From positions 96,001 to 160,000 of the forward strand of contig CAXXOU010000001.1 in assembly GCA_963677495.2 (NCBI GenBank): 64,000 nucleotides of DNA. The letters run 5' to 3'. This stretch comes from Candidatus Cloacimonadales bacterium. GTDB taxonomy: Bacteria > Cloacimonadota > Cloacimonadia > Cloacimonadales > JAFGVF01. Position numbers and translations under genes: made by a program. Below are positions 4,210-11,593 of the stretch, piece after piece. Numbering within the stretch: position 1 is the stretch's first letter; every line of letters starts with the position of its first letter. A model generated the notes under the pieces. That model did not search any database, was not told where the DNA came from, and was given only the letters and a program-made list of their open reading frames with translations.

Positions 4210-5274
4210 TTGATGAGAACATGTGGAAATCGTTACGGCACACATAGAGTTGTTGAGCCACAAGGTGTTTTACCACAGCCTGCAAGAGTAGTTAACAATG
4301 ATATGACAGAGATCTGGGACAATGAAATGTTAATCGACGTAATTCGTCTTAATGTGGACTCAGCATCTTTCCATCAGATTAAAGAAAAACTTATTGCTCA
4401 GGGTCACGAGAATGATCTTGAACAGGCTTTTGCTGATCATGTTATTGATCTTACTGACAGAACAGGAAAACATAAAAATGAAGATACAGGTTCAGGCGGA
4501 ATGCTTATTGGTCGCGTATCTGCAATCGGACCTAACTTCGAAATGAAAGAGGAAGTTAAAGTTGGCGATAAAATCGCTACACTCGTATCACTTTCACTTA
4601 CTCCTCTGAAAGTAAACAAAGTAAACAAAGTTCATTTAAATAAAGATCAAGTTGATGTTGAAGGACAAGCAATTCTTTTCAGCTCAGGTATCTATGCTAA
4701 ATTACCTGAAGATATGGATGAGAACCTTGCACTTTCTATTCTTGATGTAGCCGGTGCTCCTGCACAGGTTGAAAGACTTGCAAAACCGGGTGACACAGTA
4801 GTTATCCTTGGTTCAGGTGGAAAATCAGGTATTCTTTGTAATGCAATTGCTAAAGAGAGAGTTGGTGTATCCGGTAAAGTTATTGGACTTGTACATCATG
4901 AAAACCATAAAAATGACTGCTACATTACCGGTTGTGACCATGTTGCTATTGGTGATGCAACTAATGCAGTTCAGGTTGAAGAAATTGTGCACAAAGCTAC
5001 TGATGGTAAGATGGCTGACCTTGTTGTAAACGTTGTGAACGTTGATAACACAGAGATGGCTTCAATCATGGCTTGTAAAGATAGAGGAGTGGTTTACTTC
5101 TTCTCAATGGCAACATCTTTCACAAAGGCTGCTCTTGGTGCAGAAGGTATTGGAGCTGATGTTGATATGATCCTTGGTAATGGTTATGCTCATAATCACG
5201 CAATGATCTCTATCGACCTTCTCAAGAGAAATGAAACTCTTATGAAGTTATTCAAAGAGAGATATACAGACTAA
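4210..5274 (+). CDS. kdd: L-erythro-3,5-diaminohexanoate dehydrogenase
   Basis: YGTHRVVEP N-terminus, GKHKNEDTGSGGMLIG, LVSLSLTPL, FFSMATSFTKAALGAEG; adjacent to kamA. Confidence 0.92.
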   Translation: MMRTCGNRYGTHRVVEPQGVLPQPARVVNNDMTEIWDNEMLIDVIRLNVDSASFHQIKEKLIAQGHENDLEQAFADHVIDLTDRTGKHKNEDTGSGGMLIGRVSAIGPNFEMKEEVKVGDKIATLVSLSLTPLKVNKVNKVHLNKDQVDVEGQAILFSSGIYAKLPEDMDENLALSILDVAGAPAQVERLAKPGDTVVILGSGGKSGILCNAIAKERVGVSGKVIGLVHHENHKNDCYITGCDHVAIGDATNAVQVEEIVHKATDGKMADLVVNVVNVDNTEMASIMACKDRGVVYFFSMATSFTKAALGAEGIGADVDMILGNGYAHNHAMISIDLLKRNETLMKLFKERYTD

Positions 5275-5291
5275 ATATTATTAGATAGACA

Positions 5292-5317
5292 TAAAAGCTC
5301 AGGAAACTGAGCTTTTT
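5292..5317 (+). terminator. Hairpin / intrinsic terminator between kdd and kamA
   Basis: AAAAGCTCAG-GAAA-CTGAGCTTTTT. Confidence 0.6.
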
Positions 5318-5340
5318 CTATCTTTCAAAGAGGTATTAAA

Positions 5341-6609
5341 ATGATTACAGATATAAAATCAACCGCAACTGAACAGGAGTGGAACGACTGGCATTGGCAG
5401 TTGAGAAATAGAATCTCAACAGTCGAAGAGTTAAAAAAATATATCGTTCTTACTGAAGAAGAAGAAGCACTTTTTGCTGATGAAGATTTCTCATTCAGAA
5501 TGGCCATTACTCCTTACTACCTTTCACTTATCGATCATTATGATCCTAATGACCCTATCAGAAAACAGGCTATTCCTGCTATTATGGAAAGCTTCCTATC
5601 TAAAAATGATATGGCTGACCCATTGCATGAGGATGTTGATTCTCCTGCAAAAGGTCTCACACATAGATATCCGGATCGTACACTTCTCTTAGTTACAGAT
5701 CAGTGTTCAATGTATTGTCGTCACTGTACTCGCCGTCGTAAAGCCGGTGAGAATGATATGGCAATGCCTATGTCTGAAATTAATAAAGGAATTGAATATA
5801 TTAGACAGCATAAAGAAGTGCGTGATGTAATCATCAGTGGTGGCGACCCACTTACATTAGGAGAGAAGAGACTTGAAGAGATTATCTCTCAGCTTTATGA
5901 AATAGAGCATGTTGACATAATCAGAATCGGTTCCAGAACTCCTGTTGTTCAGCCACAAAGAATCACAGATGAGCTTTGTGCGATGTTTAAGAAGTATCCA
6001 CCAATTTGGTTCAATACACATTTTAATCACCCTAATGAGATTACTCCTGAGTCAAAAGAAGCTCTAAGAAAGCTCGCAGAATCAGGTGTGGTTCTTGGTA
6101 ATCAGACAGTTCTACTTAAAGGTGTAAATGATCATGTTGAGGTTATGAAAAAACTCATGCACCTTCTTGTTAAGAACCGTGTTAGACCTTATTATATTTA
6201 CCAATGTGACCTTTCTGAAGGTATTTCTCACTTCAGAACTCCAATTTCAAAAGGTATTGAGATTATTGAGTCATTGAGAGGACATACATCAGGTTTATGT
6301 GTTCCTACTTTTGTTGTAGACGCACCGGGTGGTGGTGGAAAGATTCCAGTACAGCCAAACTACATCTTATCACAGATGCCTGGAAGAGTTATTCTTCGCA
6401 ACTATGAAGGCTTCATTACAACATACACAGAACCTCAGTATCAGATACAGAAACGCGAAGATTATCGTGGATTAGTTGAAGAGGTAAGACGTTCTGATGA
6501 TGGTGTTATGAATCTTCTCTATGGTAATAATCTTTCATTTGGTCCTGAAGATACCAAACGTAATGTTCGTCAGGAACAGATTAAAGCTTTTAAAGCTAAA
6601 CAAGACTAG
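5341..6609 (+). CDS. kamA: Lysine 2,3-aminomutase (radical SAM, PLP)
   Basis: WNDWHWQL, THRYPDR, CSMYCRHCTRRR (CxxxCxxC), DAPGGGGKIP. Confidence 0.97.
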   Translation: MITDIKSTATEQEWNDWHWQLRNRISTVEELKKYIVLTEEEEALFADEDFSFRMAITPYYLSLIDHYDPNDPIRKQAIPAIMESFLSKNDMADPLHEDVDSPAKGLTHRYPDRTLLLVTDQCSMYCRHCTRRRKAGENDMAMPMSEINKGIEYIRQHKEVRDVIISGGDPLTLGEKRLEEIISQLYEIEHVDIIRIGSRTPVVQPQRITDELCAMFKKYPPIWFNTHFNHPNEITPESKEALRKLAESGVVLGNQTVLLKGVNDHVEVMKKLMHLLVKNRVRPYYIYQCDLSEGISHFRTPISKGIEIIESLRGHTSGLCVPTFVVDAPGGGGKIPVQPNYILSQMPGRVILRNYEGFITTYTEPQYQIQKREDYRGLVEEVRRSDDGVMNLLYGNNLSFGPEDTKRNVRQEQIKAFKAKQD

Positions 6610-6616
6610 TTTCAAT

Positions 6617-6638
6617 GCCCCCTTTCATAGGGGGCTTT
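6617..6638 (+). terminator. GC hairpin after kamA
   Basis: GCCCCCT-TTCAT-AGGGGGC-TTT. Confidence 0.5.
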
Positions 6639-6645
6639 ACTTCTT

Positions 6646-7650
6646 ATGACAGCATACGATCAAATAAAACACTCTCTTTTTCCCAATGAAAGAATGGTAA
6701 TTGCAATTACCGGGCTTTCTAAGAATGCAGGGAAAACTTCTCTCCTAAATTGGTTGTTAAAGCATTTTCCACAGTATGAATATGGTTTAACAACTACCGG
6801 TAGAGATGGAGAGGAGAAGGACTTGGTTTTTGGAACCGAAAAACCAAAAGTAATCGTTTCTAAAGGAACAATAATTACGACTTTTGCTACTGAAATACAA
6901 CGTAACGCTCATTGTTATGAAGTACTTGAGAAAACAAGATTTCAGGCTGGAGGGAAGGATATTTGGATAGTACGGACAATCGCTGATTCCGAAGCTGAGA
7001 TTGTAGGCCCTGCCAGTGTAAGTGAACAACAAGAGATAATCAAAAGGCTACGCATTCTTGGAGCTAGTACCATAGTTATAGATGGTTCTTTAGATAGAAA
7101 AGCAGTTCTGTTAAATGAAAAGGTTCAAGCCATGATTATTGCTGCTGGTGCTAATTATGGTAATAGTGACTCCATTATCAAAGAACTTCGAAGATTGCAT
7201 ATTCTAAGAAATATTCCGATTGAGAGTGATGTACTAGCCAATCTGGACAATATTGCCATTTTCAAAGCTGGATGGATTCAAACAGAGTTACAGTCGTTAC
7301 TTGGAAATGAAAAGCAATTCCTTGAATTATGTCATGATCAGTATCCAGATAAGATATACATTCCAGGTGCGATTACAGGAGCAAATTGGCATAAACTTGG
7401 TAGTTTCTTTCTATCATTCCATGGGCGAGTTATAATCAGACATCCTTTTAATCTGCAGTTGAATCTAGTGAATGTCGAATTAATCTCAGAAGAGTTAGAT
7501 ATTACGACAGTCTATCCATTTATAATGAATGCAATAGCTGTGAATAGTGGGGCAATCAATGGTAATCACATAGATAGCGAGGCATTGTTAGCGGAAGTTA
7601 GAGAGTATATCCCAGAGTTACCTGTAATTGACATTATGGGCATCGAATAA
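6646..7650 (+). CDS. KamB-like P-loop protein (lysine 5,6-aminomutase reactivase subunit-like)
   Basis: ITGLSKNAGKTSLLN, TTGRDGE, IDGSLDR motifs; directly downstream of kamA as in clostridial lysine clusters. Confidence 0.7.
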   Translation: MTAYDQIKHSLFPNERMVIAITGLSKNAGKTSLLNWLLKHFPQYEYGLTTTGRDGEEKDLVFGTEKPKVIVSKGTIITTFATEIQRNAHCYEVLEKTRFQAGGKDIWIVRTIADSEAEIVGPASVSEQQEIIKRLRILGASTIVIDGSLDRKAVLLNEKVQAMIIAAGANYGNSDSIIKELRRLHILRNIPIESDVLANLDNIAIFKAGWIQTELQSLLGNEKQFLELCHDQYPDKIYIPGAITGANWHKLGSFFLSFHGRVIIRHPFNLQLNLVNVELISEELDITTVYPFIMNAIAVNSGAINGNHIDSEALLAEVREYIPELPVIDIMGIE

Positions 7651-7720: not shown

Positions 7721-8701
7721 ATGAAAAACTCGGCAGTTGTAGTTACAATTACCGATAAGGGTTATATAATACCAACCTTTATCTTGATTCTGTCACTAAA
7801 ATATTTCAAAGTACAAGCACATGTAAATGTACTTTGTGTTGGATTATCTGAAGCAGAGAAGAAGCTATTCTCTCAATTTGAGGATGTGAATACTTTTGAT
7901 GCTGATTTGGATAACCATCGCAATCCAACCACTCGAAAAGCAGAAGCTATATTAACAGCTAAAGATGGTGGTTATGAGATGATAAGCTTATTTGACGGAG
8001 ACTGTATAGTAACAGGAGACATAACTCCATTCTTCAGACAAGATGAGCCGTCCTTATCTGCTAGATTCAAATCACCCAAAGAGGATGGTTGGGTGTTCTC
8101 AAAGTATTATCAACCCGATGATATATATGGATACATACCCAAAGTTATACTTGAGCAATGGAAGATGGATGTTGGAGAATCTGAAACACCACGAAGGAAG
8201 AACACAGTTGCTGGAGGTAATCTATCAATTCATAAAGACTACTTATGGTTTATCGATAAGTGGCATACACAAATGATGAAAGTACTTCCTAATTACAACA
8301 CGGGTGTTGCATATGATTACTCACTAACAGCTTATTCTCAACTGGATGAATCAGTGCTAAACTCACTTCTTACTTTTGCTGATAAAGTACCCCCATTAAC
8401 AGCAGGTAAATTTGATACTGATCCAAACATTTATTTAGCTCATCTAGGTCCTGGACGACCTAGATACTGGAAGCGATTCCCTAAAAGAAAACTTGTCTAT
8501 CTTGACTCAATACTTACTTTTATTAAATGGGGAAGAGAGAAAGGATATAGCTTCCCAATACTTTCTTGGCCTTTAAACCCGAAGTTGCGACTGTTTACAA
8601 AGGCTATTGCATATCTTTTCGAGACTAAAGAACTTGCCAAAAAGATAGTAAAAAAGATTTTGATTATCCTACATTTAAGAAAATATCAGGAGGAGATTTG
8701 A
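7721..8701 (+). CDS. Putative GT-A fold glycosyltransferase (GT8-like)
   Basis: N-terminal VTITDKGY..ILSL, DxD motif (FDGDCIVTGDI), later DESVLN. Confidence 0.55.
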   Translation: MKNSAVVVTITDKGYIIPTFILILSLKYFKVQAHVNVLCVGLSEAEKKLFSQFEDVNTFDADLDNHRNPTTRKAEAILTAKDGGYEMISLFDGDCIVTGDITPFFRQDEPSLSARFKSPKEDGWVFSKYYQPDDIYGYIPKVILEQWKMDVGESETPRRKNTVAGGNLSIHKDYLWFIDKWHTQMMKVLPNYNTGVAYDYSLTAYSQLDESVLNSLLTFADKVPPLTAGKFDTDPNIYLAHLGPGRPRYWKRFPKRKLVYLDSILTFIKWGREKGYSFPILSWPLNPKLRLFTKAIAYLFETKELAKKIVKKILIILHLRKYQEEI

Positions 8702-8709
8702 TAGAAGAA

Positions 8710-9357
8710 ATGAAAAGAGTAATCATCTTTTTTTTCATGATTATGGGTGGATCGATTTTATTTAGTGCTGGTAGCCATTCATGTTGAGGACCTCCACCTA
8801 AATATGTCGAGTTCGACAATGGAGTTAAGGTTCTTACCAGTGAGTTGTCAAAATACGAAAAAGCTTTTACAGGATGGGAACTAGAGAATGGAGAGTTAAC
8901 AGGTAAAAAGATTAAGTTCATTCAAGTAGCAACAAGTGCTAATGGAAAACACCTGTTTGTTGAACATAGCAAGCTAGATCATTTTTCACGTTATAGTGGA
9001 ATCAAACTTAAAGCGAAGAGATATTTTAAAGCCTTGTTAAAGGGAAAAATAGAAGCTAGGTCCATAAGTACATCCCTTAGGAAATTTGACAACTATGGTT
9101 TTGTATCAAGAGAAGTAAAACTCGCTGATGGTGTTAACTTGTTTGTTTTTTCTAATGAATCCAAAAAAGGTTTAGCTATTCAGGGTCCTAATTCACTCTA
9201 CTTTGATTTCTTTCCCGCTAATAACAGTGAGTTGATAAATAAGATAACCGATATGTTGATTGAATCTAATTTAACTGTTGCGAAAGAACCTCAGAACAAC
9301 TATATTAGTTTACGAGATATAGGAATATCAAAAAAATTTAAGGAAAACTTACAATGA
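8710..9357 (+). CDS. Putative secreted selenoprotein, paralog 1 (215 aa; UGA at 8785-8787 in a Cys-Sec dipeptide)
   Basis: ATG 8710 is in frame with ORF 8845-9357 and reads MKRVIIFFFMIMGGSILFSAGSHSC*GPPPKY; signal-peptide-like N-terminus; hairpin downstream of the UGA. Confidence 0.75.
8788..8833 (+). promoter_or_regulatory. Candidate bacterial SECIS element 1
   Basis: Upper stem TGTCG-[AGTT]-CGACA (loop 8810-8813); lower stem CTCCA/TGGAG. Confidence 0.6.
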
Positions 9358-9971
9358 AGAGAACTATCATTTTATCTATTCTAATAGCATATGCTATTAG
9401 CTTATTTGGAGCCGGTTGAGCTCCACCATCGTTTATTACCGGGTCCGGTAATGACCAGAAACATATCGTTTCAGAATTTGAAATGGTACAACACTCAGTG
9501 ACAAAAGACCCCACTGCCCCGGGTGGTATGAAAGAAGAAGTAACAGTAATCGTTAATCTAACAAAGGATGAAAAGACATTAATTTTCCCACATGATAAGC
9601 TTACTAAAAGGACAAAACTGGTTGGTAGTAAAGGGAAAGCATTGAATCTTCTGAACTCAGTCAAAAAGCAGACAAAGATTTGGTCTACTTGTGAATCCAT
9701 AAGAACAATAAGTGCCATCGGGACTGTGAATAAAGAGATTATCATGAATGATAATACAGAAATTCTTCTAATAGATAAAGAGAATAAGCCTTATGGATTA
9801 GCTATCAAGAAAGCTGATGGACTAGCGTTTGATTTCTTTGCACTAGAGTCAGATTATGGTGATATACTAAAAGCAGTTTATAAAAAACTCAATGACTATT
9901 CTCCTGCAGATTGTGGTTCATGTCGGAGAGAAACGATTGACTTTAGAGGATTAGGAACCAGCATCAAGTGA
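9354..9971 (+). CDS. Putative secreted selenoprotein, paralog 2 (205 aa; UGA at 9417-9419)
   Basis: ATGA overlap with the stop of paralog 1; reads MKRTIILSILIAYAISLFGAG*APPSFITGSGN, in frame with ORF 9483-9971; C-terminal CGSC. Confidence 0.78.
9420..9455 (+). promoter_or_regulatory. Candidate bacterial SECIS element 2
   Basis: ATTACCG-[GGTC]-CGGTAAT perfect stem, loop 9442-9445. Confidence 0.65.
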
Positions 9972-10579
9972 TTGCTTTAGTGACACTCTTAATCTTGTGG
10001 TCAGTTTCTACTTCAGTTTTTGGTAGTAATTGAATGCCTTCGTCTTCTATTATCGGTTTCGGTAATAGCGAATATGAATTTATCAAATCAGATTTTGAGG
10101 ATATAGAATACAAAGAGATTACTGTAACCGGTGCCAGTACCTATGTTAAAGAGAAGGTAACAGTATACGTTAACCCGACTACAAATGGAAAGACACTGAT
10201 TCACGGACATAAGAAGTTAAAAAAGAAAACGCAGTTATATGGATCAAAACTGAGAGCAGTATCTCTGCTTAGTGAGATTGCAAAAAGTAGATCAGTACAA
10301 ACCTATTTTGAATCAAAACGTGTAATTGATGATTATGGAATAGTCTACAAGGAAGTGACGATGAATGATTCAACAATGGTACTTCTATTTGAACCCAAGG
10401 AAGAATCTGTTAGCATTGCATTGAAACCTAAAGATGGAAAAGTCTTTAACTATTTTTCATCAGCTAAGGACTATAAAGGATTGATTGAAAGAGTGTATAA
10501 TAGATTGAATCTCATGGGTCCGAATGAGATGACCACAAAGCAAAAAATGGCTATTGATTTTAGAGGATTAGGAGAATAA
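9968..10579 (+). CDS. Putative secreted selenoprotein, paralog 3 (203 aa; UGA at 10031-10033)
   Basis: GTGA overlap with the stop of paralog 2; reads MIALVTLLILWSVSTSVFGSN*MPSSSIIGFGN, in frame with ORF 10034-10579. Confidence 0.72.
10034..10072 (+). promoter_or_regulatory. Candidate bacterial SECIS element 3
   Basis: CTATTATCG-[GTTT]-CGGTAATAG (one G-U pair), loop 10056-10059; lower pairing TTCG/CGAA. Confidence 0.65.
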
Positions 10580-11593
10580 CTAATCCTCTTTTTTTAATGT
10601 TCTTGTCATTAAAGATTTTATTGCTTCTAACGGATTCTTTTCATTAAAAAGTACTTCGTGCACCTGCTCTGTGATTGGCATCTCGACATCATACTTCTTA
10701 CTAAGAGCATAAACTGAAATAGTAGAATCTACTCCCTCTGCAACCATCTTCATAGTTTCCAGGATTTGGTTAAGAGTCTTACCACTTCCTATCTCAAAAC
10801 CTACATATCTATTACGACTGTGTTTGCTCATTGCTGTCGTTATGAGGTCTCCTATGCCAGATAAACCTAAAAAGGTTTCCGGGTTTGCTCCCATTACTTT
10901 ACCTAGACGCTTAACTTCAGCAACACCTCTTGTTAATAAAGCTCCCATAGTATTGTCACCTAACCCAAGACCTTCTGTGATTCCTGCAGCGATAGCAATA
11001 ATATTCTTAACAGCACCACCAAGCTCTACTCCCATTAGATCATTGGAGCTATATACTCTGAAGTAGTTATTACTGAAGGTATTTTGTACAAGCTTCTGGT
11101 TATCTTTTGTTGATCCGGCAATCACAACAGCAGTTGATACTTCTTTAGCTACTTCTTCTGCATGACTTGGACCCGAAAGTGTCATTATTTTCTCACTACT
11201 AAGTACAGTTAAGGACTCACTTAGAACTTCAGACATTCGTTTTAATGATTGCTTTTCAACCCCTTTAGCTACATTGATAACAGCTTCAATTCCATTGGAT
11301 TTTAAGAGTAGTGGATTCACTTGTTCAGCAACTTTCCTTAGAACCTGTGAAGGAACAGCAAAAAGAAGGATGTCGAACTCTCCGGTAACAACATCATCAA
11401 GGTTATTACTAAAACAGATAGTCTCATCGAGATGGATACCGGGAAGAAAAACGGTATTAGTGTGTGTGTGTATGAGCTCATCGGCTCTTTCTTTATCAAA
11501 TTCCCAAACCTTCACTTCATGTCCATTAACAGCTAAAAGGTTAGCTAATGCCAAACCCCAGCTACCACCACCGATTACTCTAACTCTTTGCAT
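10580..11593 (-). CDS. gpsA: NAD(P)H-dependent glycerol-3-phosphate dehydrogenase
   Basis: GGGSWG, SGPSHAEEV, GGAVKNIIAIAAG, GIGDLITT..SRN. Confidence 0.97.
   Translation of the reverse strand: MQRVRVIGGGSWGLALANLLAVNGHEVKVWEFDKERADELIHTHTNTVFLPGIHLDETICFSNNLDDVVTGEFDILLFAVPSQVLRKVAEQVNPLLLKSNGIEAVINVAKGVEKQSLKRMSEVLSESLTVLSSEKIMTLSGPSHAEEVAKEVSTAVVIAGSTKDNQKLVQNTFSNNYFRVYSSNDLMGVELGGAVKNIIAIAAGITEGLGLGDNTMGALLTRGVAEVKRLGKVMGANPETFLGLSGIGDLITTAMSKHSRNRYVGFEIGSGKTLNQILETMKMVAEGVDSTISVYALSKKYDVEMPITEQVHEVLFNEKNPLEAIKSLMTRTLKKED

Follow-up and report, generated by a model that had tools for sequence, protein, structure and literature searches.

In-frame UGA codons followed by SECIS-type hairpins in three tandem genes of a Cloacimonadales bacterium point to a small family of exported selenoproteins

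The window analysed here, a stretch of 64,000 nucleotides from the genome of a Candidatus Cloacimonadales bacterium, carries three tandem genes in each of which a hydrophobic leader is joined to a downstream frame by read-through of an in-frame UGA codon (Table 1). The best 11-residue hydropathy of the leaders is 2.65-2.98, and in all three paralogues the UGA lies just past the predicted signal peptide. Starts and stops overlap by 4 nucleotides, gene 2 opening on the end of gene 1 (ATGA) and gene 3 on the end of gene 2 (GTGA). The products are 23-38% identical. That of gene 1, which has no cysteine besides C25, is the most divergent of the three and is aligned by hhalign with the profile of the gene-2 group (98%, E 2.6e-13); gene 2 is of the type conserved in relatives. 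A pN of 0.29-0.40 against a pS of 0.66-0.74 indicates that the frames are under purifying selection, and a pseudogene reading was rejected. The interval 8600-10700 recurs unchanged in the contigs of four runs, all of one sample that may be the sample of origin.

Table 1. Coordinates of the genes, UGA codons and hairpins of the locus, in window positions.
Feature	Position	Strand	Description
Gene 1	8710..9357	+	215-aa predicted exported selenoprotein; leader, then vicinal C25-U26
In-frame UGA (U26), gene 1	8785..8787	+	TGA at codon 26
SECIS upper stem-loop 1	8805..8818	+	5-bp stem, loop AGTT 8810-8813; continues into longer imperfect stem
Gene 2	9354..9971	+	205-aa predicted exported selenoprotein; U22, C113, C187-x-x-C190
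Perfect 8-bp hairpin, 20-base palindrome	9381..9400	+	G-less loop ATAT; in gene 2 leader, 17 bases before Sec codon
In-frame UGA (U22), gene 2	9417..9419	+	equivalent place in G001 and G002
SECIS upper stem-loop 2	9433..9454	+	9-bp stem, loop GGTC 9442-9445
Gene 3	9968..10579	+	203-aa predicted exported selenoprotein; GTG start, U22, no Cys
In-frame UGA (U22), gene 3	10031..10033	+	TGA at codon 22
SECIS upper stem-loop 3	10047..10068	+	9-bp stem, loop GTTT 10056-10059
Terminator-like hairpin and T-run	10562..10597	+	end of gene 3; 5' arm formed by codons of conserved C-terminal DFRGLG motif

Below, G000 denotes the genome of the window, G001 and G002 denote two other species of the same genus, and G003 denotes a further genome included in the comparison. 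Upstream of the three genes, lysine fermentation genes occupy 4210-7650 (a dehydrogenase-like gene, lysine 2,3-aminomutase and a KamB-like reactivase subunit), and a gene at 7721-8701 encodes a 326-residue protein that has no Pfam, NCBIfam or PDB sequence match. A DxD-like motif in this protein may suggest a glycosyltransferase. G001 and G002 have the gene in syntenic position, at 71-79% identity, and a paralogue of 33-36% identity is found in 12 of 12 genomes of the taxonomic family. An identical 14-base stretch within the DFRGLG motif occurs at 9942-9955 in gene 2, where it lies upstream of the gene 3 start, and at 10559-10572 in gene 3, where it supplies the 5' arm of the terminator-like hairpin.

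The three proteins matched no family in Pfam at E 0.1 or in NCBIfam 20.0 at E 0.01, and none contains a thioredoxin-type UxxC or CxxU motif. PHROGs returned nothing for P0002 and scattered weak matches (best E 0.0026) among the nine aligned members. An AlphaFold2 model of the gene 2 product, computed with C for U from a nine-row alignment (pLDDT 75.8, pTM 0.74), has a body of mixed sheet and helix and an N-terminal arm of low confidence, with pLDDT below 50 at residues 12-24 and 29-34. Fold searches gave no clear match: Foldseek found nothing in the PDB at E 0.001, and the best VIA-align hit among 48,161 chains (Z 4.0) was a weak polo-box-like sheet-plus-helix resemblance, from which neither kinship nor a novel fold follows.

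Bacterial SECIS elements lie directly 3' of the Sec codon and carry a G early in a small apical loop, and it is this G-bearing loop that SelB with Sec-tRNA recognizes in decoding the upstream UGA. The initial annotation of the window had reported tetraloops (AGTT, GGTC and GTTT) beginning at +23, that is, after 22 intervening nucleotides, behind the UGAs ending at 8787, 9419 and 10033, each closed by CG..CG and bearing a G at loop position 1 or 2. All of this was confirmed for the three hairpins, and RNAfold over +1 to +45 returned the same stems, at -11.1, -9.9 and -10.3 kcal/mol for hairpins 1, 2 and 3. The accompanying statement that the stem sequences differ holds for hairpin 1, which shares 11 and 12 of 22 nucleotides with the others, but is overstated for hairpins 2 and 3, which are identical at 16 of the 22 positions from +14 to +35. 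The bSECISearch consensus, in the available text of PMC13188914, comprises a loop of 3-9 nt with G in position 1 or 2, an upper stem of 4-16 bp, a UGA-loop distance of 16-37 nt and an MFE of -7.5 kcal/mol or lower. When a mechanical version of these constraints was applied, the window hairpins fell within all four limits, with contiguous stems of 5, 9 and 9 bp, 22 nt from UGA to loop in every case, and MFEs over 40 nt of -9.1, -9.7 and -10.3 kcal/mol (hairpins 1, 2 and 3, respectively). From the consensus as that text gives it they differ in nothing essential, the GTTT loop of hairpin 3 being a variant of the AGTT/GGTC loops of the lineage. An Rfam scan of the window gave no match at the gathering score. 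Most likely the three hairpins are standard, ordinary bacterial SECIS elements.

Chance expectation was assessed by counting hairpins across G000, with stop codons taken from a gene set of our own dicodon model. The exact pattern reported in the initial annotation follows 4 of 155,551 genomic TGA triplets, and three of these four are the window hairpins. The initial annotation had also raised the possibility that equally stable hairpins at this distance are common after true UGA stops. None of 171 such stops is followed by a tetraloop that contains G, starts at +23 and caps a stem of 5 bp or longer; the corresponding counts are 2 of 1040 for TAA stops, 4 of 603 for TAG stops, 33 of 7348 for Cys codons and 491 of 155,551 for all TGA triplets. 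Stability alone is not rare, since 11 of the 171 true TGA stops are followed by a fold of -9.9 kcal/mol or lower, and the mechanical constraints are passed by 11/171 TGA, 148/1040 TAA and 79/603 TAG stops. The true UGA stops of the operon itself (8701, 9357 and 9971) all fail them. Past the true stop of gene 1 lies the palindromic hairpin at 9381-9400, which was flagged as terminator-like and is not SECIS-like; it constitutes an internal negative control or a weak terminator. As a separate observation, SECIS-like hairpins are rarer after true UGA stops (11/171) than after UAA and UAG stops (227/1643; Fisher p 0.006), which could reflect avoidance of false read-through or a more frequent overlap of UGA stops with the next start.

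Whether the structure of the hairpins is under selection was considered with five related sequences, namely the three window hairpins and those of G001 and G002. Across these sequences 86.7% of cells pair, against 29-62% in slid controls, and RNAalifold returns the same helix. Base changes on both sides occur in four of nine pairs, a number reached by 13 of 500 shuffles, and the covariation score of 0.367 is reached by 24 of 500; one stem pair varies as U-A, U-G and C-G. Within the hairpin, conserved residues keep identical codons at 6/6, 4/5 and 5/6 positions versus 53/98, 28/62 and 21/55 elsewhere, in three pairs of sequences that are not independent of one another. A synonymous null was built by redrawing codons from genome usage, with 2000 draws per gene. 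An equally long stem at +23 arose in 807, 103 and 16 of these draws for genes 1, 2 and 3, and an equally good fold in 11, 104 and 58; for G001 and G002 an equally good fold arose in 505/2000 and 1574/2000. Much of the pairing thus follows from the encoded peptide. The G002 hairpin is weak (-4.5 kcal/mol, with two mismatches) and fails the published constraints. Given the small number of related sequences, the outcome of the synonymous null, the weakness of the G002 hairpin and the likeness of stems 2 and 3, the evidence for selection on hairpin structure is moderate.

The genome possesses the machinery required for Sec insertion. In G000 selA, selB, selD and tRNA-Sec all score above curated cut-offs, selD itself carries a UGA, and one canonical tRNA-Sec(UCA) is present; selB and tRNA-Sec were found in G001, G002 and G003 as well. 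ARAGORN additionally called a 96-nt tRNA with anticodon ACA at G000:C4:243769-243864 (-). This candidate was rejected as a real tRNA, since its cloverleaf is poor and it is not among the 18 matches to the tRNA-Sec model; it sits in a dispersed repeat that is partly palindromic and of which at least four further copies exist, and it probably does not represent a tRNA.

A scan of G000 for TGA codons with coding continuation and a hairpin reduced 40,112 sites to 10. Nine of these are coherent; the remaining one has a start of its own farther downstream. The nine comprise the three window genes, SelD, PrxU, two Omp28-like UxxC proteins and two other T9SS-tailed proteins. The same filter passes 4 TAA and 4 TAG control sites, and the loop rule was written after the first scan result, so that the scan is not a blind test. 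The Omp28-like candidates, encoded at G000:C4:345843-348764 (-) and C4:1357260-1359128 (-) (L019 and L020), are large T9SS-tailed proteins with an N-terminal UxxC (TUGFC and WUGYC), weakly like NF045500 below its cut-off, each with a GGTC-loop hairpin at +25. The other two, at G000:C1:84066-85130 (+) (L016, CVSU, loop at +30) and G000:C3:454615-456705 (-) (L018, CDYGU, loop at +23), are T9SS-tailed candidate selenoproteins that match no selenoprotein family.

The initial annotation had proposed that the +23 spacing defines a lineage-specific SECIS model by which further missed selenoproteins could be found. As a bare pattern the +23 geometry performs at chance: TGA-N20-CG-RGTY-CG occurs 1-2 times per genome versus 2-4 times for a reversed control in four genomes, and its G003 match has a second in-frame TGA. 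Nor did the spacing hold as a mark of the lineage. Among the six other candidate Sec genes the loops start at +18 in the canonical SelD and PrxU genes, at +23 in one T9SS protein, at +25 in two genes and at +30 in one; because loop positions differ among gene families, spacing belongs to each family. The SECIS elements of SelD (TIGR00476) and PrxU (NF040737) in G000 and its order resemble those of the window in their short GC-closed upper stems, and PrxU also in its AGTT/GGTC loops, but they differ in loop position and, for SelD, in a GGG or AGG loop. Of the 13 UGA-type PrxU genes of the order, 12 form a hairpin whose AGTT or GGTC loop lies at +18. A SelD motif search recovered 5 of 30 loci. 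What the lineage shares is a loop type (AGUU/GGUC), which already falls within the general consensus. Both Cys-type PrxU genes (L064 and L065) keep the hairpin, with GGTC at +18; a hairpin alone is therefore no proof of decoding, and its retention is consistent with recent loss of Sec or with a ready-made SECIS.

Relatives of the three proteins are few. A profile search over 232 genomes of the phylum located the family in three of them, G000, G001 and G002, all of one genus, with no match in G003 (72% complete). HMMER over 1.84 billion representatives found six proteins, five from the G000-G002 species and P0008, and all six database records start downstream of the UGA position, so that signal peptide and Sec are lost. 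Searches for near-length and longer homologues added nothing, and scans of genome contigs and viral contigs found no relative; a metagenome scan found two loci that are identical to G002 around the UGA and hence provide no new independent sequence. One member of a homologue's cluster is labelled Candidatus Zophobacter franzmannii in its source database; Zophobacter is a Cloacimonadota genus (PMC8542988), and the available main text of that report does not mention selenium. The gene has the same neighbours in G001 and G002, the ortholog of window gene 7721-8701 on one side and gpsA on the other; in both, a UGA comes right behind the leader and a GGTC loop starts at +23. The G001 gene (L007) joins a gene-2-like domain to a gene-3-like one. 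Its second domain, the ortholog of gene 3, has an adjacent Cys-Cys, no leader, no UGA and no codons for the 5' arm of the hairpin. In G002 (L008) a single gene is present, which has lost about 60 internal residues. The locus is thus rapidly remodelled, with three genes in G000, one fusion in G001 and one shortened gene in G002. Throughout, the codon at this position, in five copies from three species with signal-like leaders in frame, is always UGA and never UAA or UAG. In G001 and G002 the coding sequence is conserved to either side of it, and all four gene-2-type sequences keep the C-terminal CxxC unchanged. The homologues found are few, represent four species-level samples and include database records that begin past the UGA; none of them has Cys at the Sec position, which counts against the Sec reading.

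Taken together, we consider it highly probable that the UGAs are decoded as Sec by means of coding-region SECIS elements and that the three tandem paralogues encode exported selenoproteins. SelB with Sec-tRNA would bind the apical loop 22 nt past the UGA and insert Sec at codons 26, 22 and 22. Genes 1-3 are best viewed as tandem duplicates of one selenoprotein gene that would have inherited its spacing, while the stems may have drifted with some compensatory changes. The initial annotation regarded conserved structure and spacing as independent support for Sec decoding; the support is of the SECIS type, but it is not independent, since in paralogous genes an equal spacing represents one inherited event and counts once, not three times. 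The joint loss of UGA and 5' arm from the second domain of the G001 fusion is counted in favour of SECIS function.

Signal peptidase I would cut the leader after its xF[AGS] ending, an ending shared by 41 of 111 T9SS-tailed proteins of G000. After such cleavage Sec would be carried on a flexible arm, no more than a few residues from the mature N-terminus. The position of Sec would also suit a very different fate, in which it replaces the lipobox Cys as first mature residue and, once lipidated, anchors what would then be lipoproteins. Sec does stand at position 21-26, right after the hydrophobic leader, and is followed by a Pro/Ser-rich, low-confidence stretch resembling a tether. Two of the five copies, gene 2 and G001, have Gly directly before Sec; the remaining three have Asn, Gln and Cys there. 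However, Asn (gene 3) and Gln (G002) precede Cys in none of the 85 leader-Cys proteins of G000, the 64 lipobox-like leaders of this genome are mostly hydrophobic at -3, whereas the leaders discussed here end in xF[AGS], and Gln is the commonest residue after such endings genome-wide. We regard a lipidated Sec as very unlikely; if it did exist, with no Cys form, membrane anchoring would depend on selenium.

It is also extremely improbable, in our estimation, that the UGAs are true stops terminating short leader peptides, that internal ATG or TTG starts give cytoplasmic proteins of 162, 170 and 181 aa, and that the hairpins are by-products of the peptide. The database records that begin downstream of the UGA fit such an arrangement, as do the ATG right after the UGA of gene 3, which would allow stop-restart, and the tendency of the peptide to favour pairing in the synonymous null. 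Against it are the signal-like in-frame leaders in all five copies, the 4-nt overlaps at the upstream rather than the internal starts, homology in the region between the UGA and the internal starts, and the exclusive use of UGA, lost with the hairpin arm from the G001 domain. Least probable of all is SECIS-aided read-through with Cys or another residue by a non-canonical tRNA, or leaky reading as Trp: tRNA-ReC-like tRNAs that recode UGA at SECIS elements do exist, according to the available text of PMC13582414, and the ACA call might have represented one, but that call has the defects described above, a canonical tRNA-Sec(UCA) is present with selA, selB and a UGA-type selD, and 171 other genes use UGA as an ordinary stop.

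If the UGAs are read as Sec, the residue pattern suggests that the proteins act outside the cytoplasm in thiol/selenol redox chemistry or in metal(loid) binding. Judged from that pattern, redox chemistry with the CxxC as partner is the somewhat probable role, binding of a metal or metalloid an unlikely one, and any other role less likely still. In the gene-2 type the C-terminal CxxC would be the likely partner of Sec; gene 1 may use its vicinal Cys-Sec pair, and in gene 3 Sec would be the sole such residue.

Exported bacterial selenoproteins are already known, MccSep being an example in the available text of PMC13510729. There, as in the Omp28-related NF045500, MccSep/ExtKL combine a signal peptide, a UGA and a coding-region SECIS in genes that are split in annotation, as found here. 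The window family has no sequence similarity to either and lacks haems and the thioredoxin UxxC; and whereas the same text describes Sec and Cys homologues of MccSep across many taxa, Sec in the window family would be at the mature N-terminus and no Cys form was found. The vicinal Cys-Sec of gene 1 is like that of CU-motif selenoproteins (SaoL, SaoC, HgcA, MbdU and KCU-star; Table 1 of PMC13188914, in its available text), but genes 2 and 3 have no vicinal Cys and none of the three proteins matches an NCBIfam model at E 0.01. None of the 119 families tabulated in the available text of PMC13188914, where entries are given by domain or HMM name, corresponds to a match obtained here. The family was likewise not met in the literature on Cloacimonadota and Zophobacter or on exported and lipobox selenoproteins, a coverage made up mostly of papers open without subscription. 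It is apparently a small exported selenoprotein family that is uncatalogued in Pfam, NCBIfam and the available text of PMC13188914.

According to the available text of PMC12013277, every selenoprotein known so far seems to have Cys homologues, and the pipeline described there filters out candidates that have none. The window family would escape methods based on Cys homologues if no Cys form exists; that it is an exported family existing in Sec form alone is, in our judgement, evenly balanced. As the UGA lies directly behind the leader, failed Sec insertion would yield a signal peptide only, making the mature proteins selenium-dependent, and the overlapping starts could carry this dependence along the operon. 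The RNA elements themselves are ordinary, and the value of the locus lies in the evidence it provides for a family that is truncated in database records. Seven of the nine likely selenoprotein genes of G000, the three in the window and the four for T9SS-tailed proteins, have exported products; this suggests that selenium is put to use outside the cell in this uncultured anaerobic lineage, and Sec directly behind a leader would constitute a simple, testable selenium switch on export.
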